The notes under the pieces were generated by a model. The model saw only the letters and a program-made list of their open reading frames with translations, was not told the origin of the DNA and did no database searches. From contig DASXTC010000021.1 of the NCBI GenBank assembly GCA_036505635.1, positions 124,032 through 188,031 on the forward strand: 64,000 nucleotides of DNA, in the 5' to 3' direction. This document shows positions 1 to 13,912 of this stretch, in pieces (the first letter of the stretch is position 1; every line of letters begins with the position of its first letter). A program made the position numbers and the translations under genes. Source of the stretch: Candidatus Polarisedimenticolia bacterium. Lineage in GTDB: Bacteria > Acidobacteriota > Polarisedimenticolia > JACPZX01 > DASXTC01.

Positions 1-663
1 GCGCTGGGGTTCTTCGTGGGGGTGCTGAGCTCCTTTCTTCCTTCCGTGCATTTCGCGGTGCTGACCGGCGCGGCGCTGCTGCTGGGGCTCGCCTGCGAAG
101 CGGTGCTTCTGCCGCTCACACTGATCATCTTCAAGCCGCTCGGCAAGGTCCGGCCGGCCGCAGCCGCGGCCCTGCTCGCCCTCGTCGCGCTCCTGGCCGC
201 CCCGCCCGCCCTCGCTCAGGAGGGCCCCTCCCTCCTGTTGAAGGACCAGCATGGCAGGACCGACGGCCCCGCGGCGCACCGCGGCCGGATGGTCCTGCTT
301 CTCGTCGGCCAGTCGTCCGGCCTGCGCAAGATGAAGAGCTGGGAGCTGAAGATAATCGAGGGGTCGGGCGACCACTTCGACATCGTGCGCGTCGTGGACG
401 CGCGCGGAGTGCGCGGCAGGAAGACGGAGGCCGAGGTCAACGCGCGGCTGCGGCAGGGGGTACCGGATGAGATATCAATCCTGATCGACTGGAACGGGGA
501 GGTCGCCCGGGCGTACGCTATGCCCGCGGCCGAGGTCGTCGTCACGGTCCTCGACCCGGACGGAAGGTCGTGCGGCACGACGACGGGCCCGGTGACGCCC
601 GAGGGGCTGCGCGGGTTGCTGAAGATCGTCTCACACGTCAAGGAGAAGGGGAGCTGTCCATGA
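1..663 (+). CDS. secreted or membrane protein with a thioredoxin-fold-like soluble domain. The ORF is open to the window edge and the start is unresolved.
   Basis: The reading frame is open from base 1. Two hydrophobic segments are followed by an Ala-rich signal-like stretch (AAAAALLALVALLAAPPALAQ) and a soluble domain of about 150 aa with no CxxC motif. The stop overlaps the next start (ATGA at 660-663). Confidence 0.3.
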   Translation, partial: ALGFFVGVLSSFLPSVHFAVLTGAALLLGLACEAVLLPLTLIIFKPLGKVRPAAAAALLALVALLAAPPALAQEGPSLLLKDQHGRTDGPAAHRGRMVLLLVGQSSGLRKMKSWELKIIEGSGDHFDIVRVVDARGVRGRKTEAEVNARLRQGVPDEISILIDWNGEVARAYAMPAAEVVVTVLDPDGRSCGTTTGPVTPEGLRGLLKIVSHVKEKGSCP

Positions 664-2219
664 AAATCCTCCTGGTCGCCATGCCCGACTCGGCCTCCTG
701 CTTCGACCACATGATGGAGCTGCCGAACCTCGCCCTGTGCAGCCTCGCGGGAAACCTCGACGGCCGCCACGACGTCCGGATCCTGGATCTCGTCAAGCAC
801 CGCCGGCGCGCGGCCATCGCGCTTGAGACTCAGATGCGCGATTTCGAGCCGGACCTGGTGGGGATCTCCGCGATGTCGTTCCAGATCGGCTCTGCGCGCA
901 ACACCGCCGCCATCTGCAGGGCGATGAAGCCCGACGTCATCACGGTGCTTGGGGGATACCACGCCACCGTCATGTGGCAGGAGATCGGCGAGGGGCCCGA
1001 CCGGACGCTCTTCGACTACGTGGTGCGCGGGGAGGGGGAGGCGATCTTCTCGGCCCTGGTCGAGACGCTCGACTCGCATGGGGACCTGGCGGCGATCGAC
1101 GGCCTCTCGTACCGGCGCGGCGACGGCTACGAGCACAATGTCCCGGCGCACCTGCTGCACCTGGACGAAGTCCTGCTCCCCGAACGCGCCGGGCGCGTGT
1201 CGGGGGACTTTCTCTGGATGGGGCGCCCCTTCGACGTGGCGGAGACCAGCCGCGGATGCACGATGCCGTGCGGCTTCTGCAGCATTCGAAGAATGTATGG
1301 CAAGACCTTCCGGCTCTACCCCGACGAGCGGGTGGTGGCCGACATGCGCGCGATCAAGGCGCGCGGTTCCCGTGGGGTGCTCTTCGTGGACGACAACATC
1401 ACGCTGGACGGCCCTCGCCTCCGCGAGCTCTGCCTGCGGTTCGAGGCCGAGAAGGTCAACGACCTCTTCATCGTGATGCAGGCGAGCGTCTTTCCCATCG
1501 CGGCCGACCTGGGGCTGGCATCGGTGATGGCCCGCGGCGGGGTAAGGATGGTCTTTCTGGGCATCGAGAACGGGGACGAGCGCAACCTCAAGGTCCTGGG
1601 GAAGAAGGGTCAGGCGTGCCGCACCGAGAAGGTGGTGCGCGCCCTGCGCGAAGCGGGGATCATCGTCATCGGCGGCTTCATCGTCGGCAACCCCGACGAC
1701 ACCGAGGCCGACGTGCGCGCGACCTACCGCTACGTGAGAGAGGTCGGGGTGGACCACGGGATCGTGCAGTGTCTCACCCCCTATCCCAAGACCGAGCTGC
1801 GCAAGCAGCTCATCGAGCGGGGCCTGGTGACCAACCTCGACGACCTGGACAGGTACAACGGCTTCATCCCCAACGTGCGCACCGAGCACTTGTCGGAGCG
1901 GGATCTGGCGAGGATCATGACCAGCGCTGGAATCAGGCTCTACTGGGACCCGCGCTACGTGATCCAGAACGGGATCTGGAAGGCCTGCCCTTCGCAGTCG
2001 TTCTGGATGCTCTGGAACAACATCAAGTACATCTTCACCGGGTACCAGGGGAAGATGTTCCTCTCGCGCCATCGCTGGGAGCCGACGATCCCGGTGACCC
2101 TGCCACGGGACGCGCGCGCCCCTTCGCGCACCGAGATCCTGACGCCGGGCAAGGACCCGGTGCCGGGACGCTACCCGGGCGAGCGGGATTCGCGCGGCGC
2201 CGCCGCCGCGGCCGGCTGA
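660..2219 (+). CDS. B12-binding-domain radical SAM protein (class B rSAM, HpnJ/HpnP-like)
   Basis: The N-terminus (MKILLVAMPDS...) resembles a cobalamin-binding Rossmann-like region. The radical SAM cluster motif CxxxCxxC is present as GCTMPCGFCS. The protein is 519 aa. Confidence 0.8.
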   Translation: MKILLVAMPDSASCFDHMMELPNLALCSLAGNLDGRHDVRILDLVKHRRRAAIALETQMRDFEPDLVGISAMSFQIGSARNTAAICRAMKPDVITVLGGYHATVMWQEIGEGPDRTLFDYVVRGEGEAIFSALVETLDSHGDLAAIDGLSYRRGDGYEHNVPAHLLHLDEVLLPERAGRVSGDFLWMGRPFDVAETSRGCTMPCGFCSIRRMYGKTFRLYPDERVVADMRAIKARGSRGVLFVDDNITLDGPRLRELCLRFEAEKVNDLFIVMQASVFPIAADLGLASVMARGGVRMVFLGIENGDERNLKVLGKKGQACRTEKVVRALREAGIIVIGGFIVGNPDDTEADVRATYRYVREVGVDHGIVQCLTPYPKTELRKQLIERGLVTNLDDLDRYNGFIPNVRTEHLSERDLARIMTSAGIRLYWDPRYVIQNGIWKACPSQSFWMLWNNIKYIFTGYQGKMFLSRHRWEPTIPVTLPRDARAPSRTEILTPGKDPVPGRYPGERDSRGAAAAAG

Positions 2220-2227
2220 GCGAGCCG

Positions 2228-2956
2228 ATGACGAACATGGCCGCGAGCGGGCGCGCCGCCGAGATCGAGATCATGGATGCCGGCGGGTATGATGACGCCG
2301 AGATCCGCGCCAACCTCGCCGATCTGCGTTTCTACAACGATTGGTTCGGTGGGACGCGTCTCGCGATACGGGCGGTGGCCCGGCTGCTGGCCGGGGCGGG
2401 AGGGGCGCCCGCGGATCGCCTGAGCCTCCTCGACGTCGCCACCGGCTCCGGGGACATTCCGGCGGGGGTCGCGCGCTGGCTCGCGCGCCGCGGCGTTACG
2501 ACGCTGGCTCTGGGGGTCGACGCCAACCCGGAGGTCCTCGAGGAGGCGCGGCGTTTCTGCGGGGGGCGGTCCGCACCGGTGAGCCTGCTGCGGGCGGACG
2601 CCTGCCGGCTTCCGCATCCCGACCGGTCGGTCGACATCGTCCTCTGCTCTAACTTCATGCACCACCTCGACGCCTCCGAGGTGGTGGCCGCGCTGCGGGA
2701 GATGGGGCGTGTCGCGAGAGTGGGCGTCGCGGCCATCGACCTGATGCGCACGCGCGCGGCCTGGCTCAACGTCTGGCTTCTGACCCGCCTGACGACGCTG
2801 AACCGGCTCACGCGCCACGACGGGCCCCTCTCGGTGCACCGCGCCTTCGTGCCCGAGGAGCTGCGGGCGCTGGCGGGGCAGGCGGGGCTGCTCGAGGCGG
2901 AGGTGAGGCGGGCGGGTCCCGTGAGGATGGTACTGACGTGCAGGACAGCTTCGTAG
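2228..2956 (+). CDS. class I SAM-dependent methyltransferase
   Basis: Glycine-rich motif I (LLDVATGSGD) and a DIVLCSNFMHHL motif II-like segment. ATG start 9 nt after the rSAM stop. Confidence 0.7.
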   Translation: MTNMAASGRAAEIEIMDAGGYDDAEIRANLADLRFYNDWFGGTRLAIRAVARLLAGAGGAPADRLSLLDVATGSGDIPAGVARWLARRGVTTLALGVDANPEVLEEARRFCGGRSAPVSLLRADACRLPHPDRSVDIVLCSNFMHHLDASEVVAALREMGRVARVGVAAIDLMRTRAAWLNVWLLTRLTTLNRLTRHDGPLSVHRAFVPEELRALAGQAGLLEAEVRRAGPVRMVLTCRTAS

Positions 2957-4146
2957 ACGTCGCGATCGTCGGGGCGGGGCCGGCCGGCTCGGCCGCGGCC
3001 CTCGCGCTGCGCCGTGCCGGGTATTCGGTCGCGCTGCTGGAGAAGGCCCGATTCCCGCGCGACAAGATCTGCGGTGATTTTCTCACGCCCGGGTCGGTGG
3101 GCCTGCTGAAGGAGATTGGGGGAGGGGAGGTCGAGACCGAGGCTCCCTGCACGCTGCGCGGGATGCGGATGACCTATGAAGGACACGAGATCCTCTCGGA
3201 GTTTCCTGGGGCGCGGCACGGATGGAGCCTCAGCCGGAGGAAGCTCGATTTCGTGCTGGCGCGGCGGGCGGTGGCCGCGGGCGCGGATCTGATCGAGGAG
3301 TTCCGAGCCACCGAGTTCGGATCCGATCCCGAGACGGGCGGGCGCTGGGTGGAAGGGTCGTATCCGGACGGCGCGCGGCGTCGCTTCCGCGCGCGTCTGC
3401 TGCTCGAGGCCGGGGGTCGGCACGGGCTGATCGGACGGCGGCTGGGCTGGCGCGTGGATGACACACGCCTGATACGCTACGCGCTCTGGTCGAACATGGA
3501 GGGGGTGCGGGGTCTGGGAGAGCGCGGGGAGATGCACGTCTTCGCGGATGGGTACGTGGGGGTCGCCGCGCTCGACCGCTCGGCCGGCCTCGCCAACGTG
3601 ACGATGGCCCTGACGCCCGGCCGGATGGCGCGCGCGCGCGGCCACGTGCGGGAGTCCTTCCTCGATCTGCTCGCGCGCCACCCGGTGATGGGGCCGCGGT
3701 GCCGAAATGCCCGGCTCGTCACGTCCGTGCGCGGAATGGGGCCGCTGGCCTGCAGGGCCCGCAGGCTCGCGGCGGACCGGATCGCGATGTTGGGAGACGC
3801 CGGGGGTTTCGTCGATCCCTTCACGGGCGAGGGGGTCTTCGTGGCGTTGTCGGGCGCGCGGATGCTCGCGCGCGCGGTTGCGCGCGAAGGGCTCGAGTCG
3901 GCGGCGGCGCTGGCCTCCTACGAGCGAGAGTTCCACTCGGCGTTCGGCTCCAAGTTCCAGCTCTGCCGGCTGCTGCAGGTGGTGATCGCGCGTCCCTGGC
4001 TGGCGCGCCGCGTCGCGCGGGCGCTCGCCTCCCGCAAGGATCTCGCCGACCGGATGGTGGGGACCACCGGCGATCTGCTGCCGCCCTCCTCCGTGCTCAA
4101 TCCCTCTTACCTTGGAAGGCTCCTGATCGCGGGGATGACGGGATGA
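2938..4146 (+). CDS. FAD-dependent oxidoreductase, geranylgeranyl-reductase-like family
   Basis: N-terminal dinucleotide fold VAIVGAGPAGSAAA...LLEK. A CGDFL segment and GDAGGFVDPFTGEG motif are typical of the GG-reductase/halogenase flavoprotein fold. GTG start overlaps the methyltransferase end. Confidence 0.8.
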   Translation: MQDSFVDVAIVGAGPAGSAAALALRRAGYSVALLEKARFPRDKICGDFLTPGSVGLLKEIGGGEVETEAPCTLRGMRMTYEGHEILSEFPGARHGWSLSRRKLDFVLARRAVAAGADLIEEFRATEFGSDPETGGRWVEGSYPDGARRRFRARLLLEAGGRHGLIGRRLGWRVDDTRLIRYALWSNMEGVRGLGERGEMHVFADGYVGVAALDRSAGLANVTMALTPGRMARARGHVRESFLDLLARHPVMGPRCRNARLVTSVRGMGPLACRARRLAADRIAMLGDAGGFVDPFTGEGVFVALSGARMLARAVAREGLESAAALASYEREFHSAFGSKFQLCRLLQVVIARPWLARRVARALASRKDLADRMVGTTGDLLPPSSVLNPSYLGRLLIAGMTG

Positions 4147-5426
4147 GCGCGCGCCGCGTCGTCATCACGGGGATCGGGGCCGTGACCCCCGCCGGCACGG
4201 GGCGCGAGGCGTTCGCGGCCGCGCTGGCCGAGGGGCGCTCCACCGTCGGGGCGATCACGCAGTTCGACATGGACGGCCTGCCGTGCCGCGTGGCCGCCGA
4301 GGTCTCGGGGTTTGATCCTTCCGCCTGGATGGACCCCCAGGACCTCAAGCGCGTCTCGCGCGCCACCCCCTTCGGGATCGCGGCCACCTCCGAGGCGCTG
4401 GCCGACGCGGGGCTGGATGGGCCGGCGCACCACGACCTGCGCCGCGAGCTGGGAGTGGTGGTGGGTTCGGGAGCCGGCGGGATCGAGTTCGGTGAGCGGC
4501 AGTACCGGCATTATTTCGCCGGCGAGCACGGGAAGATCAGCCCCTACTCGATCTCGACCTCCTTCGTGGGGAGCCTGTCGTCCGAGATCTCGATCGCCCT
4601 GGGGCTGTCGGGGATGAGCCACGTCGTCTCCACCGGCTGCACCTCGTCGACCGACGCCCTCGGGTACGCGTTCGATTTCATCCGGTCGGGGCGCCACGAT
4701 CTCCTGCTGGCCGGCGGCGTGGAGGCCTGCATCACGCCGGCCCTCATGACCGGCTTCTGCCGGATGCGCGTGGTGTCGACCGCATTCAACGCCGAGCCGC
4801 ACCGGGCGTCACGCCCGTTCGACCGGGACCGCGACGGTTTCGTGATCGCCGAGGGGGCCTGGATGATGGTGCTGGAGGAGCGCGAGCGGGCGGTGGCGCG
4901 GGGGGCAGGTATCTACGCCGAGGTGGCCGGGTACGGCTCGACCTGCGACGCCTACCACCGCGTGACGCTCAACCCCGACGGGGTGCAGCCGGCGCGCGCC
5001 ATCCGGCTGGCGCTGTCCGACGCGGGGCTGGCGCCCGACGCGATCGGGTACGTGAACATGCACGGCACCGCCACGAGGATCAACGACGAGATCGAGACTC
5101 ACGTGATCCGGAAGGTGTTCGGGGAGCGGGCGTCCGGTGGAGGAGGCGGCGGCCCCGGTCACGGCCTCGCCGTCTCGGCCACCAAGTCCATGTTCGGCCA
5201 CCCGCAGGGGGCCTGCGGCGCGATGGGGGTCGCCGCCACGGCGCTCGCCATGCGGGCCGGCTACCTCCCGCCCACCATCAACCTCGATCACCCGGACGCG
5301 GGGTTCGATCTGGACTACGTCCCCCACCGCGCGCGCCGCGCCGAGGTCGAGGCCGCGGTCTGCAACTGCATCGGCTTCGGCTCGAAGAACTCGGCGCTGG
5401 TGATGAGGAACGCCGATTCACGTTGA
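4143..5426 (+). CDS. beta-ketoacyl-ACP synthase II-like condensing enzyme
   Basis: Active-site Cys in STGCTSS and the His motifs NMHGTAT and MFGHPQGA are present. ATGA overlap with the upstream flavoprotein gene. Confidence 0.85.
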   Translation: MSARRVVITGIGAVTPAGTGREAFAAALAEGRSTVGAITQFDMDGLPCRVAAEVSGFDPSAWMDPQDLKRVSRATPFGIAATSEALADAGLDGPAHHDLRRELGVVVGSGAGGIEFGERQYRHYFAGEHGKISPYSISTSFVGSLSSEISIALGLSGMSHVVSTGCTSSTDALGYAFDFIRSGRHDLLLAGGVEACITPALMTGFCRMRVVSTAFNAEPHRASRPFDRDRDGFVIAEGAWMMVLEERERAVARGAGIYAEVAGYGSTCDAYHRVTLNPDGVQPARAIRLALSDAGLAPDAIGYVNMHGTATRINDEIETHVIRKVFGERASGGGGGGPGHGLAVSATKSMFGHPQGACGAMGVAATALAMRAGYLPPTINLDHPDAGFDLDYVPHRARRAEVEAAVCNCIGFGSKNSALVMRNADSR

Positions 5427-5447
5427 TCGAGGTTCCTTGGCGCCCGG

Positions 5448-5873
5448 TCATACCACCTTGCGGTAGACCCACGCTCCCACCAACGATGCCGTGACAGCCG
5501 CGATCAGCGTCGTCGCCAGCGGTACGAGGACCACTTCTCGTGGAACGAATCCAAGCCCGGCCCACTTCGCGCTCTGCAGGCTCTTGATGGTCCACCACGC
5601 GACGCCGGCGATGGCCGCGGTCTTCGCTCCCGCGCCGTACCTTGGAGCGATGGCCGAGTAGAGCCACATCGCCCAGATGCCCATCATGAGGTCCAGGGCG
5701 AAGAAGAAGGCGCCGCCCATCGGCGGATGAGGAGCGGTCCCCTGCAACGAGGCCAGGAAATCCTGTGCGAAGAGGAAGAGAATAGCAGCGCAGAGGAGGA
5801 ACCAGACGATGCCGGCCACGACGCCGCTGAGAATGATCCGGAGCCAGTTGGTGCCATGCACGCCGCGCTCCAT
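5448..5873 (-). CDS. small polytopic membrane protein (about 4 TM helices), function unknown
   Basis: 141 aa with four hydrophobic helices and aromatic/Trp-rich loops. Confidence 0.5.
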   Translation of the reverse strand: MERGVHGTNWLRIILSGVVAGIVWFLLCAAILFLFAQDFLASLQGTAPHPPMGGAFFFALDLMMGIWAMWLYSAIAPRYGAGAKTAAIAGVAWWTIKSLQSAKWAGLGFVPREVVLVPLATTLIAAVTASLVGAWVYRKVV

Positions 5874-5967
5874 TGACGCCGAGCTACCTTGGCTCCCCGC
5901 GTTCTCTAGTCTCGGCGGCGGACGACAGGGAGGATAAGGGCCCCGCCGAGTCTGTCGGCAGGTTAAT

Positions 5968-6394
5968 AGTCCTAGCCACCTTCTCCAGGAAGCACGCCTT
6001 CAAGCTCCTCAAGGCTCCTCCATTCAACTGCCCCGGTCGGCAACGGCAGCTCGAAGTCGATGAGCGCGGAAAGCAAACTCGACACCCGAGCGGAGGCCTC
6101 ACCTTCGGACCGAAGCACGGTCAAGGCACTGTAGGGCTTCTCGCATTTCACCTCCTCGCCGAGATACGCGGCTTCGAAATTCGGCAGTGACGCAATAAGG
6201 CGGGCATTGCCGAGGGCCTTCTGAACCTCTGTGCGGATGGAGTCGTTCAGCGCCCAAGCTGGGTTCCTGATTTCCTTGCCCGCCTTTCTATATGTAGGAC
6301 GATCACTGTCGTGGAGAACTGCGTACGGCGCCCCGAATTGATTCAGTATCTTAACGAGAGCAACCAGTGTCCGGGCTGCGTGAGCTGAAGCTCA
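5968..6394 (-). pseudogene. start-less remnant of an OLD-family (Toprim-domain) ATP-dependent endonuclease C-terminus
   Basis: Manual translation of the minus strand gives ASAHAARTLVALVKILNQFGAPYAVLHDSDRPTYRKAGKEIRNPAWALNDSIRTEVQKALGNARLIASLPNFEAAYLGEEVKCEKPYSALTVLRSEGEASARVSSLLSALIDFELPLPTGAVEWRSLEELEGVLPGEGG. There is no in-frame ATG/GTG/TTG. It has a Toprim-like hydrophobic-strand + DxD segment (AVLHDSD). The local GC content is clearly lower than the flanks. Confidence 0.4.
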
Positions 6395-6396
6395 GC

Positions 6397-7050
6397 CTAC
6401 TTCTTCTTGCCCTTGACGGGTGTGGCAGCGGCAGTCTTCGCAGCCTCTTCGGCGGCGGCCTTGTCGGCGTCAGCCTGAGCCGCGGCAGCGGCCGCTATTG
6501 CTACCTGCTTGCCCTCGGCGACGGTCTTCAGCTGGGCGAGCCCCTTCTCGATGTCGGTGCCGAGCATGTTGTCCATGTCCATGAACATGCCGAAGGCTTT
6601 GCCGATGAAATTGTGGTTCCCATCCATCGACCACGTCACGAACGAGCCGGTCGGCGTACCCGCGAGGGTGAGCGCACAGGTTGCCGTGGACTCCATCGGC
6701 TCCACAAACTCGAGCTTCATGCCCACCTTCTGGCCAGGGACGCTCTCTTCGATCGTCATCTTGCCCTTGCCGACTTCCTTGTTGCCGCTCCACGCATACG
6801 ACTGACCGACGCCCGCCGCGGGGCCTTCGAAGGTCTTCTGCATGTTGGGATCGAGCTTCTCCCACGGCGACCCGAAAAGAACCAAGACACCCGCAAACTG
6901 ATGGAGGTCGTTGAGAACACCGAACACGAGATCGGCTGGAGCAGCGACCTCGAGCTTGCGCTCGACGTGATAGGTGGACGGCCGTGTGGCCACCACCGCT
7001 ACGAAAAGGACCAAGACACCCGCAACACCGATGAGAATTTTCTCGAGCAT
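6397..7050 (-). CDS. SRPBCC (START/Bet v1/polyketide-cyclase fold) protein with N-terminal TM anchor and Ala/Lys-rich C-tail
   Basis: 217 aa. N-terminal hydrophobic helix, a beta-rich middle and an AAAAAAQADADKAAAEEAAK...KGKKK tail. Confidence 0.55.
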   Translation of the reverse strand: MLEKILIGVAGVLVLFVAVVATRPSTYHVERKLEVAAPADLVFGVLNDLHQFAGVLVLFGSPWEKLDPNMQKTFEGPAAGVGQSYAWSGNKEVGKGKMTIEESVPGQKVGMKLEFVEPMESTATCALTLAGTPTGSFVTWSMDGNHNFIGKAFGMFMDMDNMLGTDIEKGLAQLKTVAEGKQVAIAAAAAAQADADKAAAEEAAKTAAATPVKGKKK

Positions 7051-7060
7051 TGAAGCCCTC

Positions 7061-7840
7061 CTAGAGGCTGCTGGCGGCTGCGACGAGATCGCTCGCGCGC
7101 TCGCGTTCAGCGCCGTACACGATCACATAGCCATACACAAAAGTGGATAGCACATCCGCTTTGCCTTCGAGGCAGAAGCGGAGCAGTGCATCGTCGTACT
7201 CGCGCACGACGAGCGCGAGTACGTGCGTTTCCGTTACGAGATCGACCACGCCCGTGAGGACGTCGCCTTTCGGCGTGGTGAAGCGGAATTGGTCGCCGAC
7301 CTTCGGCAGGGCCGAAAAGCCAAGCTTGCCGAGAAGCGTCTTCCAGATCGACCCGCGCGGGGACTCGACATTCGACATGAAGGGGAGGTGCACCGCCGGT
7401 TCGTGCGGGTGCCGCGCGAAGTACTGGCGGAGGTTTTGGAGCATCAGCTTCCAGCCGCGCGCGTGCGCCTCGTACTCGTGGTCCCAGTCGGCGCTTGCAC
7501 TGAAACCGGAATGAACGAGGCGGAGCGTGGTTTTGCCGCCTTCGCGCGCTTCGATCGACCAATCGGCATAGAGCGGCGCCTTCGTTTCGCCGTTCTGGCC
7601 AGACGGATGACGTATCCGCTTCGGCGCGTCGAAGATTTCGATCTCGTGCTCGGCGCTCATGCCTTCGCCCCACGAGATCCAAATGCTGCCTTTTTTCCCG
7701 CCTTCCGGTGCGGTGACGCGCGCTGCGGGCGCGAGCCATTTCGCGATTTCGGTACCGTCGGTGACGGCGCGGAAGACGTCTTCGGGAGAGGCGTCGAGCT
7801 CGACAGAGAGCTGGATGTCGCGGGTGTTCTTCTTGTTCAT
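7061..7840 (-). CDS. SRPBCC-family protein, AHSA1 (activator of Hsp90 ATPase)-like
   Basis: Start chosen at MNKKNTRDIQ (ATG 7840), preceded by GAGGT. The upstream extension of the ORF is Arg-rich, low-complexity and overlaps in frame. Confidence 0.55.
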   Translation of the reverse strand: MNKKNTRDIQLSVELDASPEDVFRAVTDGTEIAKWLAPAARVTAPEGGKKGSIWISWGEGMSAEHEIEIFDAPKRIRHPSGQNGETKAPLYADWSIEAREGGKTTLRLVHSGFSASADWDHEYEAHARGWKLMLQNLRQYFARHPHEPAVHLPFMSNVESPRGSIWKTLLGKLGFSALPKVGDQFRFTTPKGDVLTGVVDLVTETHVLALVVREYDDALLRFCLEGKADVLSTFVYGYVIVYGAERERASDLVAAASSL

Positions 7841-7917
7841 GGTGGTGACCTCAGCGAACCAATCAGAGTTTCTGGCCAAGAGCGCGAAATACTTCACGCC
7901 AAGGCACGGCCCGAGGC

Positions 7918-8772
7918 CTATCGAAACGCCCAATCGTGATCGCGCGCGTAACGGTCGAAGGAGATCGGATCGTTGCCCGTGACACGCTTCACGTCGGGGG
8001 AGATCCGCGCCGCACGCCCCGCGATGTAGTAGCGGGTCAGGTCGACCACCGCGTCGGCGTACGCCTCCGGCACACCGGCGCTCACGACCCACTGCTTGAA
8101 CTGATCCGCGGTGACCTCCACGTAGAGGACCTTGCGCCCGATGACGGCGGAGAGCTTCTCGGCTATCTGCCCGTAGGTGAGCGCCTCCGGTCCACTCAGG
8201 TCGTAGGCCCTCCCTTCGTGTCCAGTCGCGGTCAGGGCCTTCAGGGCGACCGCCGCGATGTCGCGGACGTCGACGTGGCTGATCCTTGCTTCTCCCGCCG
8301 GCTGGTGGAAGGCTCCCCGCGCCTTGATCGACGGTCCGGAGAAGTTCGAGAGATTCTGCATGAAACCGTTGGGTCGCAGGAAAGTCCAGGCGATCCGCGA
8401 GGCCTCGATCTCCCGCTCGACCGGACGGTGGGCCTTCGCGAAGGAGAAATCCTCCCCCTCGGCCCCCCAGACCGACAGCTTCACGATGCGCCGCACGCCG
8501 GCCTTCTTCGCCTCGCGCACGACGTTGATCTCGAGCTGCGTCTGAGAGGGGCTCCAGCCCGAGAGGAGAAACAGGGCCTCGACTCCTCTCAACGCGACCC
8601 GAAGAGTCTCGGGCTCGCCGAAGGGAGCGTGGACGGCTTGAAGACCGGCCTGTCGCGCCCTGCCGGCCTTCTCGGGGGTCGAGTAGCCCGCGTGGAAGGG
8701 GATCCTCGCCGCGTCGAGCTGCCTGCCCAATTCACTGCCGACGGTCCCTCCCGCGCCCGTGACGAGGATCAT
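7918..8772 (-). CDS. NmrA-family NAD(P)H-binding oxidoreductase (atypical SDR)
   Basis: N-terminal ILVTGAGGTVG Rossmann motif. 284 aa. The upstream part of the 597-aa ORF was rejected as an extension. Confidence 0.8.
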   Translation of the reverse strand: MILVTGAGGTVGSELGRQLDAARIPFHAGYSTPEKAGRARQAGLQAVHAPFGEPETLRVALRGVEALFLLSGWSPSQTQLEINVVREAKKAGVRRIVKLSVWGAEGEDFSFAKAHRPVEREIEASRIAWTFLRPNGFMQNLSNFSGPSIKARGAFHQPAGEARISHVDVRDIAAVALKALTATGHEGRAYDLSGPEALTYGQIAEKLSAVIGRKVLYVEVTADQFKQWVVSAGVPEAYADAVVDLTRYYIAGRAARISPDVKRVTGNDPISFDRYARDHDWAFR

Positions 8773-8856
8773 GGCCTCCGCTCCAGATGAAGGGTCGTCA
8801 GCATACAACGCCGGCGCCCCTTGACCAACCGCGCGCGGTCGTCCAGAATCGACGAC

Positions 8857-9990
8857 ATGCCGCGCCAGGTCTTCCGAGCCGGTCCGGCCGCAGCTGCGGT
8901 CGCGATCCTCATCTCCTGCTCGGCCGGCGAGCCTCCCGCCGGTCGCGACGCGGCCGCGCTCAGGGACGAATACCACCGTATCCAGCAGCAGGCGCTCGTG
9001 GAGCTCCGGGCCTGGGGGGCCGGAAATGATCGGAACGTGGATCCCCGGCCCCGATGGGCGGAGAAGCTCGAGGCCTTCGCCACCGCGCATCCCGAGGCCC
9101 CCGAGGCGGCCGAGGCGCTGGAAGGGGTGCTGCAGCTTCGGGAGGGGAGCCGGGACATCGACGGCTTCTTCAAGGCCTACAAGACATTGCTCGAGATCGC
9201 CCCGGATTCCAACGGTCTTCCCTCGGTCTTCGAGCAGGTGAAGGCGATGCGCGTGCTCGAGGCGGGGGGCCCGACCATCATGTCCGCTCCGGATGACGAG
9301 GCGAGGCGCCGCGCCTACAGGACGGCGGCGCCTCACATCGCGGCGGATCTCGAACGGGCCGTCGCGGCCGCGAAGAGGCCCGCCACGCTCGCCGCCGCCC
9401 ACCTGGCCATCGGCGAGACCTGGTTCCTGTTCGACCTGGATCTGGGCAAGGCGCTGAAGCACTTCAAGGTGGTCGCCACCCAGTTTGCGGATGCGTCGAC
9501 GGCGGCCCAGGCCCGCGAGTACGTCGCGGAGATCGAGACGCTGGGGCCCGGCAGGCCGGCCCCCGACTTCGAGGCGGTCACCGTGGACGGCAAGAAGATC
9601 CGCCTCTCGTCGTTGAAAGGCTCCATCGTGCTGATCGACTTCTGGGCGACCTGGTGCATGCCGTGCCTGGTGGAGCTGCCCAACCTCAGGCGAGCCTATG
9701 AGAGGTTCCACGGCCGGGGGTTCGTCATTCTCGGCGTCAGCATCGAATCGGACTCGGCGGAGGTGTCCCGCTTCGCCGCCAGGAAGGGCATGACGTGGCC
9801 GATCCTGGTGGACGGCGCCGAGGGAAACATGGCGACCGGACCGGTGGCCCGGGCCTACAACGTGCAGTCAATCCCCATGTCGTACCTCGTGGACAGGGAC
9901 GGGACGATCCGGGCCCGGCGCCTGCTGGGAGACGGGGTGGAGCGCGCGGTGGCGGACCTGCTCGTCCGTCGTGTGGCCGCGCTCAGATAG
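8857..9990 (+). CDS. TlpA-family thiol:disulfide oxidoreductase (thioredoxin-like) with N-terminal helical domain
   Basis: WATWCMPC active-site motif (WCxxC) and IDFWATWC context. Lipoprotein-like signal LISCSAG near the N-terminus. Confidence 0.8.
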   Translation: MPRQVFRAGPAAAAVAILISCSAGEPPAGRDAAALRDEYHRIQQQALVELRAWGAGNDRNVDPRPRWAEKLEAFATAHPEAPEAAEALEGVLQLREGSRDIDGFFKAYKTLLEIAPDSNGLPSVFEQVKAMRVLEAGGPTIMSAPDDEARRRAYRTAAPHIAADLERAVAAAKRPATLAAAHLAIGETWFLFDLDLGKALKHFKVVATQFADASTAAQAREYVAEIETLGPGRPAPDFEAVTVDGKKIRLSSLKGSIVLIDFWATWCMPCLVELPNLRRAYERFHGRGFVILGVSIESDSAEVSRFAARKGMTWPILVDGAEGNMATGPVARAYNVQSIPMSYLVDRDGTIRARRLLGDGVERAVADLLVRRVAALR

Positions 9991-10018
9991 GAGTGGCGTC
10001 GTGGTGCCGCGTCATGTG

Positions 10019-10627
10019 ATGCTCGGCCCGGTCCTCCTCGCCGCCGCGGGCGCTCTGGCGACCGCGGCTCCGCTCACCCTCTCGATCGATCCGGCCGCGA
10101 GCCAGGTCCTCTTCCATCTGCAGACCACGTGGCACGGGGTGGAGGGGCGCACCGGAAGGATCTCCGGGGCCCTGACCACCGAGAGCGGCGACATCCTCGG
10201 CGACGGCCGCGTCACGGTGGAAATCGAGGCGGCGGCGCTCGACACGGGCAACGCCCGCCGCGACCGGACCATGCGGGATTCCCACCTCGAGACCGGCAGG
10301 TATCCGGCCATCGCCTTCACCTCCACCGGCCCGCCGGCGGTCGCCTCGTCGACGAAGGACCCGGCCGGCGCCCTGACGGGCGCCTCGCTCACGGTGCCCG
10401 GCAGCCTCGCGATACACGGTGTGACCCGGGCGGTGGGCCTGCCCGTGACCGCCCGGCGGCAAGGGGATGCCTGGCTCATGGAAGGGGAGCTCGTGGTGAA
10501 GCTGTCGGATTACGCCATCCCCGATCCCTCGATCTTCCTCAATCACGTGCAGGACGAGGTGACGGTATCATTCAGTATCACGCTGCGGCCCGGCACAGCC
10601 CCCCCCGCGGAGCCGCGCCGGCGTTGA
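10019..10627 (+). CDS. YceI-family periplasmic protein
   Basis: Signal peptide followed by a beta-rich YceI-like domain. Start at MLGPVLLAAAGA. Confidence 0.65.
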   Translation: MLGPVLLAAAGALATAAPLTLSIDPAASQVLFHLQTTWHGVEGRTGRISGALTTESGDILGDGRVTVEIEAAALDTGNARRDRTMRDSHLETGRYPAIAFTSTGPPAVASSTKDPAGALTGASLTVPGSLAIHGVTRAVGLPVTARRQGDAWLMEGELVVKLSDYAIPDPSIFLNHVQDEVTVSFSITLRPGTAPPAEPRRR

Positions 10628-10688
10628 CCTCTCCGCGGCGGCGACGGTAGACTGCCCAGTTCACGAAGTCGGAGAGGCGCATCCCCGC

Positions 10689-11771
10689 ATGAGACGGTAC
10701 CCCGCCTTCGATCCGCCGGAGTATGTCAACTGGGCCCCCGACCCTCAGGCCATGGAGGAGTTCCGGGCCCGAGTCCCCGCCACGCCGCCCGACGCGCGGA
10801 TCCTCGTGCGGCTCTACGAAGGGATGGTCCGAAATCGCCTCCACGACATCGCGCTCAAGCGGTGGGTGCGCCAGGGAGTCATCTCGAAGGCCTGGCTGGG
10901 AACCGGGGAGGAGGCCGTCACGATCGGCAACACGCACGCGCTGGCCCGCGGCGACGTGGTGGGCCCCATGATCCGCAACGCCGGCGCCTGCCACGAGATG
11001 GGGATGCCGGTCGTCGATCTCCTGAAGGTCTACCTTGGCGCGTCGGATACCATCACGAGAGGGCGTGACCTGCACACCGGCGATCCGGCCCACGGCGTGA
11101 TCCCTCCCATCTCGTTCGTGGGGGCGCTGGTGCCCGTCTTCGCCGGGCTCGCCCTCTCCTTCAAGATGAAGCGGGAGCCGCGCGTGGCGATGACCTGGGT
11201 GGGGGACGGCGCCCGCTGGACCGCGGAGTTCCACGAAGGGATGAACTTCGCGGCCGTGCAGAGCCTGCCGCTCGTGATCGTGCTCCAGGACAACCAGGTG
11301 GCGCTCGGCACGCGCGGTCCGGCGCACTCCAAGGCCGCCTGCGAGGAGATGGCGGCCGGTTACGGAGTGGACGGGCTGACCTGCGACGGCAACAATGTGC
11401 TGGATGTCTACGCGACCTCGTGCGAGGCTGTCTCCCGCTGCCGGAAGGGCTCCGGCCCCGTCATCCTGACGGCGACCACCTTCCGGATGGGCGGGCACGC
11501 TACGCACGACGAGGCCGAGGCGCGCGACCTCTTCAGCCCCGAGGTATTCGCCCACTGGGGCAGGCGTGACCCGATCGGGATGTACGAGACGTGGCTGGTC
11601 GAGCGGGGGGCGCCCGCCGGCATCAGCGCCGGTGAGCTGGCCGGGATCGAGGAGAAGGTGAGCCGCGAGGTCGAGGAAGCCGCGGAGGCGGCGCTGGCCG
11701 GCCGCAGGCAGACGGCGGCCACCGAGGAGGATGTCCTGCGGGGCGTCTACTGCGAGGTGACCGGACGATGA
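10689..11771 (+). CDS. thiamine-diphosphate-dependent 2-oxoacid dehydrogenase E1 component, alpha-subunit-like (stand-alone)
   Basis: ThDP-binding motif GDGA...(about 28 aa)...N is present ([33 protein letters not shown]). ATGA overlap with the next gene. Confidence 0.75.
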
Positions 11772-13912
11772 AGGCGCGAGCCGGCAACCGGACGGGAAAC
11801 CCATCGGGTCGGCGTGCCGGATCCGCGCCAGGCCTCGATCGCGAGACGCTGGTCGGAATCTATCGCATGATGTACCTGTCGCGCCGCATCGACGACAGGG
11901 AGCTCCAGCTCAAGCGCCAGAACAAATACTTCTTCCAGATCAGCGGCGCCGGCCACGAGGCGATCCTCGTGGCTGCCGGGATGGCGCTCAAGGCCAGCCA
12001 CGACTGGTTCTACCCGTACTACCGCGATCGCGCGCTCTGCCTCCAGCTCGGCATGACGCCGAAGGAGATGTTCATGCAAGGGGTCGGAGCGGCGGCCGAT
12101 CCCAACTCCGGATCCCGCCAGATGCCGGCCCACTGGGGTCACAAGGCCCTCAACATCGTCTCCCAGTCGAGCCCCACGGGGACCCAGTTCCTACAGGCGG
12201 TGGGCTGCGCGGAGGCGGGGCGCTACCTCTCCCAGATGGACGAGGCAGTGGCCAGGGCGGGCTCCTTCAAGGGGGACGAGATCGTCCTTGTCTCGGGCGG
12301 CGACGGTTCGACGTCCGAAGGGGAGTTCTACGAGGCGTTCATGACGGCCTGCGTCTGGCGTCTGCCGGTCATCTTCCTGATCGAGGACAACGGCTACGCC
12401 ATCTCGGTGCCGGTGTGGATTCAGACACCGGGGGGCAGCATCAGCAAGGCGCTCGCCTCGGTGCCGAACCTCACCATCGAGGAGGTGGACGGGTGCGATC
12501 CGCTCGCGTCGCTGGAGGTGATGCGCCGCGTGGTGGACCGGATGCGCCAGCGGGAGATCGGCCCGGTCCTGGTGCACGCGCAGGTGGTCCGTCCCTACTC
12601 CCACTCGCAGTCCGACGACGAGAAGGCTTACAAGACGGAGGCCGAACGGGCCGAGGAGGCCCGCCGCGATCCGATCGCGCGGTTCGGCGCCTGGCTGGTG
12701 GGCCAGGGGCTCGCCGCCGAGGAGTTCCTCGCCGAGGTGCGCGCCGACGCCGACGCCGAGGTGAGCCGCGCCGCCGACGAGGCGCTGGCGGAGGCCAAGC
12801 CCGATCCCGCGTCCGTTTTCGACCATCTGTATTCGTCCGCGATCGACCCGGTCTCACCGGAATTCGAATCGCCGGCCCGGCCCCAGGGGGAACCGACCAC
12901 CATGGTCGATCTGCTCAACTCCTGCATGCGCGACGAGATGGCGCGCGACGAGCGGATCGTGGTCTTCGGCGAGGACGTCGCCGACGCGGCCGATGAGAAG
13001 CTCGAGCAGGTCAAGGGGAAGGGCGGCGTCTTCAAGGTCACGTGGGGCCTGCAGAAGAAGTTCGGCAGCCGCCGGGTCTTCAACTCGCCTCTGGCGGAGG
13101 CCAACATCATCGGCCGGGCCGTCGGAATGGCGACGCGCGGTCTCAAGCCGGTCGTGGAGATCCAGTTCTTCGACTACATCTGGCCCGCCTTCATGCAGAT
13201 CAGGAGCGAGCTGGCGCTGATGAGGTGGCGCTCCAACGGGGCGTTCGCGTGTCCGGTGGTGGTGCGGGTCCCGATCGGCGGGTACCTCGGCGGCGGCTCC
13301 ATCTACCACAGCCAGTCCGGCGAGGTCCTCTTCACCCACATGCCGGGGCTGCGCGTGGTGATGCCGGCCACCGCGGCCGACGCCAACGGCCTGCTGCGCA
13401 CCGCCATCCGGTGCGACGACCCGGTCATCTTCCTCGAGCACAAGCACCTCTACCGGCAGACCTACAACAAGGAGCCCTACCCGGGGCCCGACTTCATGAT
13501 CCCCTTCGGCAAGGCCAAGACGGTCCTTGCGGGGAACGACATCACGCTGATCACCTACGGGGCGCTGGTGGAGCGCAGCGCGCGGGCGGCGAAGAAGGCC
13601 GCCGAGCTTCACGGCGTCTCCGTGGAGGTGATCGATCTGCGCTCGCTGGCCCCGTTCGACTGGCAGGCGATCGAGGCCTCCGTGAAGAGGACCGGCCGGG
13701 CGCTTGTGGTGCACGAGGACGTCCTGTCGTTCGGCTACGGCGCGGAGATCGCGGCGCGGATCGGCGGCGAGCTCTTCGAGTACCTCGATGCGCCGGTGCG
13801 CCGCGTGGCGGCGAAGGACACGTGGGTGGCCTACGAACCCGGGCTGGAGGACGCCGTCCTGCCGCAGGAGCACGACGTGCTGGCCGCCATCGAGGCCCTG
13901 GCGAGGTATTGA
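11768..13912 (+). CDS. fused E1 alpha/beta ThDP-dependent dehydrogenase (alpha domain plus transketolase-like beta domain)
   Basis: 714 aa. The N-terminal half has [15 protein letters not shown]...IEDNGYAIS (GDG...N). The C-terminal half has beta-subunit features ([20 protein letters not shown], transketolase-like C-terminus). Confidence 0.8.

Follow-up and report, generated by a model that had tools for sequence, protein, structure and literature searches.

We analysed a 64,000-nucleotide stretch of the genome of Candidatus Polarisedimenticolia bacterium (Acidobacteriota; contig DASXTC010000021.1, positions 124,032 to 188,031; hereafter the window). The window opens with an operon encoding an MMPL-family exporter, a cobalamin (B12)-binding radical S-adenosylmethionine (SAM) enzyme (rSAM1), a methyltransferase (MT), a flavin adenine dinucleotide (FAD) flavoprotein, and a FabF-like beta-ketoacyl synthase (KAS). 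Judged by sequence, the MT and the flavoprotein are homologous to the tailoring pair of operons that run methyltransferase, FAD oxidoreductase, type III polyketide synthase (T3PKS), and they stand in the same order. The KAS fills the position that the T3PKS holds in those MT–FAD operons. Our reading, to which we tentatively assign a probability of about 45%, is that this operon and a Redoxin–YceI gene pair downstream of it make, tailor, and export a phenolic lipid of the alkylresorcinol or alkyl-methoxy-(hydro)quinone (“polyketide quinone”) kind.

Because the G+C content is 68 to 72%, spurious open reading frames (ORFs) are plentiful in the window. A preliminary description of this DNA had named four translationally coupled genes from 660 to 5426. 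It is these ORFs, on the + strand, that carry domain matches (Pfam and NCBIfam), and all four are intact with strong matches: rSAM1 (660..2219, 519 amino acids [aa]; PF02310 and PF04055), MT (2228..2956, 242 aa; Methyltransf_25/11 and Ubie_methyltran), the flavoprotein (2938..4146, 402 aa; FAD_binding_3), and KAS (4143..5426, 427 aa; N- and C-terminal ketoacyl-synt domains). They are real and coupled, but the unit has a fifth member that comes first. Positions 1..663 (+) are the 3′ end, the last ~220 codons, of a 930-aa MMPL/HAE3 exporter gene, and the operon therefore reads MMPL–rSAM–MT–FAD–KAS. ATGA overlaps join MMPL to rSAM (660-663) and FAD to KAS (4143-4146), and the FAD gene starts with a GTG at 2938, overlapping the MT gene by 19 nucleotides (nt). 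At the rSAM/MT junction, a tight 8-nt gap without overlap separates the rSAM stop from the MT ATG. KAS is the last gene, and since opposite-strand genes follow it, we place the operon end at 5426. The same five-gene order was found again in other Polarisedimenticolia contigs (L086 and L099, and L007 up to the contig end; L numbers denote the loci compared here), which argues that the arrangement is beyond chance. Rfam gave no regulatory RNA match in window positions 1-12000, and the intergenic gap of only ~57 bp before the MMPL gene leaves no space for a B12 riboswitch. A promoter/terminator scan 3′ of KAS was uninformative.

The nearest annotated relatives of the MT, found by tblastn of plasmids, sit inside T3PKS operons. 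These are the Paludisphaera borealis plasmid PALBO1, with MT–FAD oxidoreductase–T3PKS in the order of the window; the Roseomonas haemaphysalidis plasmid p546-2, with T3PKS–MT–FAD monooxygenase in the order of L088; and a Paenibacillus replicon carrying a type III PKS operon. With the operon enzymes of Paludisphaera and Roseomonas, the window MT shares 34-35% identity (reciprocal matches, with E values of 1e-21 to 1e-26 in a small-database BLAST). Its earlier assignment to the class I methyltransferases stands on the Methyltransf_25/11 and Ubie_methyltran matches and on a motif I that reads LLDVATGSG. The best NCBIfam model was PRK06202, at 144 bits over a full-length alignment (cutoff, 243), and the methyltransferase of the Paludisphaera T3PKS operon reached 232 bits on this model.

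The published operons give an idea of the chemistry. The hidABC genes make hierridin B, a hydroxylated and doubly O-methylated alkylresorcinol, and MT–oxidoreductase–T3PKS operons with alkylresorcinol products occur in 58 planctomycete strains; the methyl group added by the G. maris methyltransferase is probably a C-methyl (PMC10896814). In actinomycetes, pkqA–pkqC (T3PKS, methyltransferase, and oxidoreductase) lead to alkylbenzoquinones, the “polyketide quinones,” which are electron carriers under hypoxia (PMC9927152). The window resembles hidABC and the planctomycete operons in the order of methyltransferase, FAD enzyme, and condensing enzyme, in an MT that is probably of the same PRK06202-like family (34% identity to Paludisphaera), and in a flavoprotein with the family motifs and NCBIfam score profile of the operon FAD enzymes. 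One variant of a planctomycete-related operon also includes a lipid/isoprenoid-binding protein. The differences are that the condensing enzyme of the window is a FabF-like KAS instead of a type III PKS, that MMPL and B12 rSAM genes are added upstream, and that the window system is known from genes alone. Compared by gene content alone, pkqABC and srsABC of actinomycetes share with it the three-gene unit of condensing enzyme, methyltransferase, and oxidoreductase/hydroxylase; the products known from such operons are alkyl-methoxy-benzoquinones, alternative electron carriers under hypoxia (PMC9927152), and the synteny of the rSAM family with cytochrome bd in other phyla fits a redox-lipid role. 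The condensing enzyme of pkqABC and srsABC is a type III PKS, and neither rSAM nor MMPL is part of them.

For the flavoprotein, a role as an aromatic-ring monooxygenase is more probable than one as a geranylgeranyl reductase (GGR), the family given by its automated label and by the preliminary description. GG-red-SF (TIGR02032) was its best NCBIfam model, at 136.3 bits and below the cutoff of 158.8, with QhpG (101), MenJ (82), and LodB (61) behind; the Paludisphaera flavoprotein has the same profile, with GG-red-SF, MenJ, and QhpG on top. The protein carries GxGxxG, GDAGGFVDPFTGEG, and FPRDKICGD. It has neither the YxWxFP of GGR, which we take to be the substrate-clamp motif of archaeal GGR structures, nor the WxWxIP of halogenases; where GGR has its motif, the sequence is GYVGVAAL. 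The GGR-like Cys near the flavin (K-x-C-G-[GED]) is present as C45, which does not vary among 33 homologues, and K43 is the only invariant Lys in the family alignment. The motifs FPRxK[IV]C[GA][ED], GGYxG[LIV], and GDAxGFxDPFTGEG are common to 16-33 homologues, T3PKS-linked ones included.

Comparison with known structures pointed the same way. A phmmer search of the PDB gave ChlB4 (88 bits) and CmlS (74) ahead of archaeal GGR (40). With the AlphaFold2 model (pLDDT, 94.6), the top Foldseek match was 3nix, an uncharacterised flavoprotein of C. hutchinsonii (TM score, 0.85), followed by the phenol/pyrrole halogenases CmlS, FasV, ChlB4, PltA, and PltM (0.75-0.80), with GGR at rank 40. In sequence and fold, then, the protein is nearer to phenol- and pyrrole-acting enzymes of the flavin halogenase/monooxygenase type. 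A halogenase proper was ruled out by the absence of WxWxIP. From this absence, the halogenase-like fold, and the flavin reductase encoded next to a relative, we infer a monooxygenase.

That relative belongs to a sample of four homologues (36-42% identity) whose gene context was inspected. Two of the four lie in T3PKS–MT–FAD operons. The third, in a member of the Gemmatimonadaceae (L176), lies in a cluster that reads B12-rSAM (rSAM2)–FAD–flavin reductase–MT–SRPBCC–KAS. The fourth, from Ktedonobacterales (L177), stands behind a ketosynthase (KS) and a chain-length-factor (CLF)-like KS without the catalytic Cys and His, near UbiA and an MT. At L177 (421-7915), one strand carries the UbiA prenyltransferase, a metallo-beta-lactamase-fold protein, and the MT, and the other strand carries the KS, the CLF-like KS, the homologous FAD enzyme, and a PNPOx-like protein; this cluster has the look of a type II PKS-style pathway for a prenylated aromatic. 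Among plasmids, the window flavoprotein had no tblastn match at E <= 1e-10.

The position of the KAS is best seen next to a gene for a fused E1 dehydrogenase/transketolase (11768..13912 in the window). At L178, T3PKS–MT–FAD is followed directly by a fused E1 gene that is 66% identical to the one in the window and to the gene at the corresponding position in L087. The L178 flavoprotein is 41% identical to that of the window over 400 aa. This synteny among L178, L087, and the window indicates that related genomes carry either T3PKS–MT–FAD or MT–FAD–KAS before an orthologous E1 gene. The KAS-anchored loci were those of its best homologues (58-59% identity), none of which is in a fab operon; all inspected homologues (58-89% identity; L086-L092) adjoin this MT and FAD, and none is beside acpP or fab genes. 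Several of the KAS, FAD, and rSAM matches also lie on contigs of the same length (for example 25,529, 142,445, 5,479, and 12,395 bp).

As the preliminary description had it, the enzyme is FabF-like: both ketoacyl-synt domains are present, and Cys166, His307, and His353 align with the T. thermophilus FabF triad and are intact. It passes the broad KAS II model PRK07314 (443 bits; cutoff, 387) and scores 455.7 on fabF TIGR03150, under the equivalog cutoff of 493.75; the NCBI label is merely “synthase family protein.” The active-site Cys motif of its clade is STGCTSS, where T. thermophilus FabF has TACATG, and the clade has GHPQGA in place of GHLLGA and a C-I-G-F-G-S-K-N loop in place of S-F-A-F-G-G-H-N. 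The residue lost from this C-terminal loop is one that we take to be the gating Phe of FabF, and its loss would presumably have a functional meaning. At residues ~331-340, ahead of the conserved Lys/His loop, the window KAS has a glycine-rich insertion, SGGGGGGPGH, that is absent from all aligned relatives. The view that this is not core fatty-acid synthesis gained support as well, from the score below the FabF cutoff and from the surroundings: there is no acyl carrier protein (ACP) gene (acpP) and no second KAS anywhere in the 64-kb window. The preliminary description had raised the prospect of fab genes immediately upstream; the source contig (JGI Ga0376053_0000059, L001; 121,860 bp), a metagenome contig that encodes the identical rSAM protein, has none upstream of the operon. 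Four T3PKS queries found no T3PKS in the window or in L001 by tblastn. We also regard as supported the broader idea of the preliminary description that these genes build and tailor an unusual lipid or polyketide-like product.

Two other kinds of system invite comparison. Minimal type II PKSs resemble the window in having a KAS II-fold KS together with SRPBCC cyclase genes (directly adjacent in L140 and L176, nearby in the window), in the L177 pair of KS and CLF-like KS beside a homologous FAD enzyme, and in the STGCTSS motif of the window KAS. They differ in that the only KS of the window is accompanied by neither a CLF nor an ACP and is nearer to FabF than to actinorhodin KS-alpha (339 versus 265 bits). 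Candidate ladderane clusters of anammox bacteria combine FabF homologues, a B12-rSAM, and an FAD desaturase-like enzyme (PMC13459092). The likeness lies in a FabF-like KAS, a cobalamin rSAM, and a flavoenzyme meeting in a non-housekeeping lipid cluster, but the window rSAM reaches only 67 bits on the ladderane-type lipid B12-rSAM model TIGR04072 (cutoff, 360), its flavoenzyme is of another family, and a dedicated ACP/FabZ is missing.

Across related loci, the operon comes apart into two modules, MMPL–rSAM1 and MT–FAD–KAS (with or without Redoxin–YceI), which are joined in the window. We rejected a fixed four-gene cluster: a tblastn survey anchored on the rSAM alone showed no conserved context, which was partly a sampling artefact, while anchoring on KAS and FAD revealed the conserved MT–FAD–KAS module. 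The full order MMPL–rSAM–MT–FAD–KAS is that of the Polarisedimenticolia contigs named above. The closest rSAM relatives (L008-L010 and L098) have MMPL–rSAM alone, followed by unrelated genes. Another Polarisedimenticolia genome (L087) has MT–FAD–KAS–Redoxin–YceI and no MMPL–rSAM, and other Acidobacteriota (L088-L092) have KAS–MT–FAD in three different surroundings. One of the contigs with the window order, L007 (DASROJ010000079.1; 5.5 kb), is binned as “Patescibacteria group bacterium”; it reads SpmSyn–MMPL–rSAM–MT–FAD, its rSAM is 85% identical to that of Polarisedimenticolia, and it is probably mis-binned.

More distant rSAM1 loci recombine the same families. In two loci, genuine type III PKS genes, detected by tblastn, stand beside rSAM1. 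L045 has MMPL–rSAM1–YceI–T3PKS–U32, and L020 has MMPL–rSAM1–MT and, convergent to it, a T3PKS that NCBIfam confirmed (DpgA model, 274 bits). The remaining arrangements are YceI–MMPL–KAS–U32–U32–rSAM1 in L034 (Thermodesulfobacteriota), rSAM2–MT–U32–rSAM1 in L032 (Armatimonadota), MT–rSAM1–SRPBCC–KAS–rSAM2 in L140, KAS / FAD–rSAM1–ICMT-like–YceI in L002/L013 and L021, and Redoxin / rSAM1–FAD / YceI in L004/L012 and L102. Flavoprotein genes (nine loci) and U32 genes (L032, L034, and L045) never occur together in these clusters. By analogy, this recalls ubiquinone synthesis, in which the aerobic UbiH/F/I and the anaerobic UbiU/UbiV hydroxylases are likewise flavin and U32 alternatives. The U32 proteins scored 38-40 bits on PF01136 and 28 bits on TrhP; UbiU/UbiV identity was rejected, as no NCBIfam UbiU/UbiV model matched, and the window differs further in having no U32 gene.

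For a census of rSAM1 neighbours, we used 59 loci with at least 3 kb on either side and, as a control, 19 loci around other B12-rSAMs. One or more members of the phenolic-lipid gene set were found in 14 of the 59 rSAM1 loci and in 2 of the 19 controls. The most frequent neighbours were a 188-aa protein with a rubredoxin ribbon and four transmembrane (TM) helices (22 loci) and cytochrome bd subunits I and II (15 loci), followed by YceI (8), MMPL (7), KAS (6), FAD (5), MT (3), U32 (3), and T3PKS (2). The 188-aa protein, whose rubredoxin-like zinc ribbon is N-terminal, lies 3′ or divergently 5′ of rSAM1 in Dehalococcoidia/Chloroflexia and Spirochaetota (L014-L024, L030, L035, L039, L048-L050, and L104-L118; e.g., L017, 9966-14491), often with cytochrome bd I and II directly after it. 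Two Ignavibacteria loci (L040 and L047) have CydAB downstream of rSAM1. The rubredoxin-TM protein and cytochrome bd may be a membrane-anchored electron donor and a quinol oxidase.

The rSAM1 protein itself has the class B architecture, a B12-binding domain followed by a radical SAM core, and is predicted to bind cobalamin. PF02310 matched residues 20-133 (64.1 bits; cutoff, 32.1) and PF04055 matched residues 196-358 (67.8 bits; cutoff, 29.5). The single CxxxCxxC is CTMPCGFC at residues 200-207 (C200/C204/C207), and there is no second Cys cluster motif. These matches agree with the preliminary description, which had a cobalamin-binding radical SAM enzyme with this motif. Its suggestion of a hopanoid enzyme of the HpnP/HpnR type fared less well: the rSAM scored 102.9 bits on HpnJ (cutoff, 577.6) and 99.4 on HpnR (cutoff, 650), HpnP was not among the best 25 NCBIfam families listed, no hopanoid genes were found among the neighbouring genes, and the MMPL protein scored 48 bits on HpnN against a cutoff of 752.

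Every named family scored the rSAM below its own cutoff. BchE (TIGR02026) was the best, at only 149.6 bits against 481, which does not bear out membership in a well-characterised non-lipid family such as BchE, a case that the preliminary description had considered; ApyD, HpnJ, HpnR, and PhpK lay at ~90-103 bits, far below their cutoffs. The alignment with BchE is full length (residues 3-429 versus 2-429 of 497) with the same B12-binding and radical SAM architecture, and JGI labels many rSAM1 members as BchE; however, there is the wide gap to the cutoff, and no (bacterio)chlorophyll gene occurs among the window genes or the recurring partners at related loci. The nearest PDB matches are distant (MgmA, 9ccb, 63 bits; AprD4, 62 bits). 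By sequence, rSAM1 is an uncharacterised BchE-like family. All of its genome matches (36-87% identity) come from metagenome-assembled genomes (MAGs) and form three tiers: Polarisedimenticolia at 78-87% identity; ~473-aa proteins of Dehalococcoidia/Chloroflexia, Spirochaetota, Binatia, and other Acidobacteriota at 45-54%; and Ignavibacteria, Neomarinimicrobiota, and Asgard archaea at 36-41%. The homologues at 36-41% identity (Ignavibacteria, Asgard archaea, and others) had no informative conserved neighbours.

A second B12-rSAM family, rSAM2, occurs in the same kind of cluster (L176, 4503-5966; L140, 11106-12578; L032, 1835-3301). Identity is 41-44% among its members and 23-25% between them and the window rSAM, and both families are present in L140 and L032. 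In the control set, L066 (Planctomycetes bacterium GWA2_39_15) has a distant B12-rSAM (28% identity) followed by two KAS genes within 8 kb and may be a ladderane-type lipid cluster.

The preliminary description had also supposed that the partial ORF upstream of rSAM might belong to an exporter, and the full gene on L001 (7212..10004, 930 aa) bears this out. The protein has two PF03176 MMPL domains and a sterol-sensing domain, and its best family was HAE3 RND TIGR00921 (195 bits; cutoff, 351.9). The HpnN hopanoid transporter was rejected, at 48.4 bits on TIGR03480 (cutoff, 751.85) and 28.2 on NF052374 (cutoff, 1100). The sequence AAGGAGAAGGGGAG precedes the MMPL/rSAM ATGA overlap. MMPL lies directly 5′ of rSAM homologues in L008-L010, L020, L045, L086, L098, and L099, and L007 has a shorter or partial MMPL ORF there. 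The C terminus (window 1-663; L001, ~9480-10004) holds an extra hydrophobic/TM segment and a ~150-aa domain with no Pfam or NCBIfam match, whose pattern is like that of a TlpA-like thioredoxin fold without CxxC. Just outside the window and divergent from the MMPL gene, L001 encodes a fused protein of 1202 aa (3547-7155, − strand) that is MFS/spermidine-synthase-like and ends in TPR repeats. The divergent SpmSyn/TPR–MMPL arrangement recurs in L007, L086, and L099, and in L096 an SpmSyn gene is directly upstream of rSAM, with MMPL not detected. This 1202-aa gene may belong to the MMPL–rSAM module.

Downstream of the operon by 3.4 kb lie the genes for a TlpA/ResA-like periplasmic thiol-disulfide oxidoreductase (8821..9990, + strand, 389 aa; AhpC-TSA/Redoxin, ResA subfamily at 97 bits) and a YceI-like lipid/polyisoprenoid-binding protein (10019..10627, + strand, 202 aa; PF04264). 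A redoxin gene is directly 3′ of MT–FAD–KAS in L087, lies downstream in L086, and flanks rSAM–FAD in L012/L004 and L102. YceI adjoins rSAM homologues in L012, L013, L021, L034, L045, and L102; in L086 and L087, it comes after the redoxin gene. The redoxin gene is likely an accessory of the system, and the YceI protein is likely the periplasmic carrier of the product. Between the operon and this pair, all on the − strand, are genes for a 141-aa protein with no family match (5448-5873), two SRPBCC proteins (Polyketide_cyc2, PF10604; 6397..7050 and 7061..7897), and an NmrA-like NAD(P)-binding protein (7918-8772; EasG-like, 142 bits). L086 and L087 lack this block, which is therefore probably an insertion. 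SRPBCC/Polyketide_cyc genes lie immediately 5′ of KAS in L140 and L176, and the window pair had no detectable BLAST similarity to them and is absent from L086 and L087; a role of the pair as accessories (cyclase or lipid-binding) is possible. Genes for 2-oxoacid dehydrogenase E1, including the fused E1/transketolase gene, fill window positions 10689-13912. They stand directly 3′ of both KAS-type and T3PKS-type loci (also L178, 8266-10371, and L087, 13121-16427) and could be mere synteny or suppliers of (branched) acyl starters.

The homologies, gene orders, and syntenies described above suggest a route in which each chemical step is one that we infer. The KAS would make a poly-beta-keto or long-acyl scaffold from acyl-ACP and malonyl-ACP in the manner of a type II PKS, aided in some relatives by an SRPBCC cyclase, or else it would provide a special acyl starter for an enzyme that forms the ring and is encoded at another site. 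The flavoprotein would hydroxylate the ring, with U32-family proteins taking its place in anaerobe-type relatives, and the PRK06202-like MT would add an O- or C-methyl group. The cobalamin rSAM would carry out an O2-independent step on an unactivated carbon, most likely C-methylation and less likely a BchE-type oxidation or cyclisation. The MMPL pump and the YceI carrier would then move the product out of the inner membrane.

Several observations weigh against this phenolic-lipid reading. Product chemistry has been established for no member, and the role of the FAD enzyme within the planctomycete operon is unproven (PMC10896814). The ~74 kb inspected contain no type III PKS, ACP, ketoreductase, or dedicated cyclase. 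We know of no FabF-like homodimer that makes resorcinol, and the KAS is nearer to T. thermophilus FabF (339 bits) than to the actinorhodin KS-alpha of a type II PKS (265 bits). The window MT is below the PRK06202 cutoff (144 versus 243 bits), and the match between the window and planctomycete flavoproteins is weak (E of about 1e-8 to 1e-10). With no UbiU/UbiV match and 28 bits on TrhP, the equivalence of U32 proteins to anaerobic hydroxylases is an analogy. The sampled loci are not phylogenetically independent. Finally, ~40% of the rSAM1 loci do not have these neighbours, and 22 of the 59 have the rubredoxin membrane protein with or without cytochrome bd; because many loci show this pair instead, the rSAM substrate may be a more general membrane molecule.

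The genes might instead tailor an aliphatic lipid, which we consider unlikely. The KAS would then serve dedicated chain elongation, and the MT and flavoprotein would install a hydroxy/methoxy group or a methyl branch, the latter by methylenation of a double bond and flavin reduction or by alpha-C-methylation and a special enoyl reduction. The B12-rSAM would methylate an unactivated carbon of the chain and MMPL would export the product; the extra mid-chain methyls of acidobacterial membrane-spanning lipids, of the iso-diabolic acid or branched glycerol dialkyl glycerol tetraether (brGDGT) type, are an example. Such a scheme suits a KAS that is FabF-like overall with its triad intact, a flavoprotein family that retains the invariant Cys of the K-x-C-G motif, where GGR-type reductases likewise carry Cys, and the acyl-CoA ligase gene that flanks rSAM1 in several Chloroflexota loci. 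The host belongs to the acidobacterial Polarisedimenticolia, and the genes for acidobacterial membrane-spanning lipids are still unknown (PMC13159169); B12-rSAMs are known to methylate lipid chains in archaea and in hopanoids (PMC13459092; bioRxiv 2025.10.20.683597). A reading as a membrane-spanning-lipid synthase of the Mss/Tes type survives only within this scheme, as nothing ties the rSAM1 family to Mss/Tes. What the aliphatic scheme leaves unexplained is that the MT and flavoprotein are homologous to enzymes with tested relatives that act on alkylresorcinol rings, that the KAS stands at the gene position of a type III PKS, and that true T3PKS genes accompany the same rSAM, MT, YceI, and MMPL families. 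Further, the flavoprotein fold is closest to phenol-acting enzymes and lacks the YxWxFP of GGR, and the MT, with no CMAS match, is not like a cyclopropane fatty acid (CFA) synthase.

Tailoring of an isoprenoid, a hopanoid, or a prenylquinone is distinctly improbable. It would pair a GGR/MenJ-like flavoprotein that saturates double bonds of isoprenoids with a C-methylating rSAM of the HpnP/HpnR type, a UbiE-like MT, an HpnN-like MMPL, and a YceI polyisoprenoid carrier. GG-red-SF is the top NCBIfam model of the flavoprotein (136 bits; MenJ, 82), the MT has weak UbiE/MenG matches, YceI proteins bind polyisoprenoids, and the MMPL has a sterol-sensing domain. Moreover, the quinol oxidase cytochrome bd is syntenic with rSAM1 in 15 of 59 loci, and a UbiA prenyltransferase adjoins the related FAD cluster in L177. 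Yet the hopanoid models score far below cutoff (HpnR, 99/650; HpnJ, 103/578; HpnN, 48/752), the flavoprotein falls under the GGR cutoff, without YxWxFP and with GGR at structural rank 40, and the annotated genes around the locus include no squalene/hopene cyclase, prenyltransferase, or men/mqn gene. Nor would a role be left for the tightly coupled, clade-specific KAS. Very improbable, in turn, is that the genes share no pathway, with the KAS a housekeeping FabF and the rest unrelated neighbours packed together. The KAS does pass the PRK07314 cutoff, and the halves are separable, L008-L010 having MMPL–rSAM without MT–FAD–KAS and L087 the reverse. However, start/stop overlaps join the genes, the MT–FAD–KAS trio recurs among Acidobacteriota, in either gene order and with surroundings that are otherwise unrelated, and the same families recombine in Gemmatimonadota, Armatimonadota, Thermodesulfobacteriota, and Chloroflexota, while the KAS is under the FabF equivalog cutoff with altered catalytic-loop motifs and has no acpP/fab genes nearby. 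We give hardly any credence to maturation of a peptide, whether a ribosomally synthesized and post-translationally modified peptide (RiPP) or a protein cofactor, by an ApyD-like peptide methylase and a QhpG/LodB-like hydroxylase of peptidyl aromatics. These families appear as second-tier NCBIfam matches (ApyD, 103 bits; QhpG, 101; LodB, 61), but their scores are far under the cutoffs, the inspected loci have no gene for a precursor peptide, peptidase, or RiPP recognition element, and the consistent partners (KAS, T3PKS, MMPL, YceI, and SRPBCC) are lipid-related.

Within the phenolic-lipid reading, the tailoring pair and the operon logic are already known, and the putative displacement by a KAS, the rSAM1 family, and the coupling to an exporter are new as judged from the genes. 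In our literature search, no paper connected B12-rSAMs, MMPL, or a FabF-like KAS with alkylresorcinol/polyketide-quinone operons, and the literature on brGDGT methylases, on rSAM with U32 and YceI, and on rSAM with alkylresorcinol yielded no description of this system. A 2026 review of lipid-modifying radical SAM enzymes covers Tes, Mss, Gms, GrsA/B, Gmm, Cds, HpnH/J/P/R, Jaw5, and the ladderane candidates and includes no family like rSAM1 (PMC13459092).

A bolder proposal, which strikes us as rather unlikely, gives rSAM1, known only from MAGs (Acidobacteriota, Chloroflexota/Dehalococcoidia, Spirochaetota, Ignavibacteria, and Asgard archaea), the central part in a new O2-independent pathway. 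Its product would be a redox lipid of the membrane, namely an alkyl(hydro)quinone derived from a polyketide or from the KAS. The enzyme would C-methylate the head group or oxidize or cyclize it anaerobically. In anaerobes and microaerophiles, this lipid would supply cytochrome bd, and in Acidobacteriota, a dedicated MMPL/YceI system would export it to the envelope. If this were true, phenolic lipids would have a new, non-type-III origin in the FabF-like KAS clade.

If the phenolic-lipid reading is true, operons for phenolic lipids and polyketide quinones have more plasticity than has been described: a FabF-like ketosynthase can displace a type III PKS, U32-family proteins may substitute for the flavin hydroxylase, and a cobalamin rSAM and MMPL/YceI export can be added. 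The labels “Geranylgeranyl reductase family protein” and “menaquinone-9 beta-reductase,” which relatives of the flavoprotein carry, are annotation traps. The reading offers a first testable functional lead for a widespread, uncharacterised B12-rSAM family that databases label “BchE” or “YgiQ” and, likewise, for an acidobacterial KAS clade labelled “FabF.” Envelope lipids of Acidobacteriota serve as environmental biomarkers, and a new lipid class in these bacteria would be of geochemical interest.

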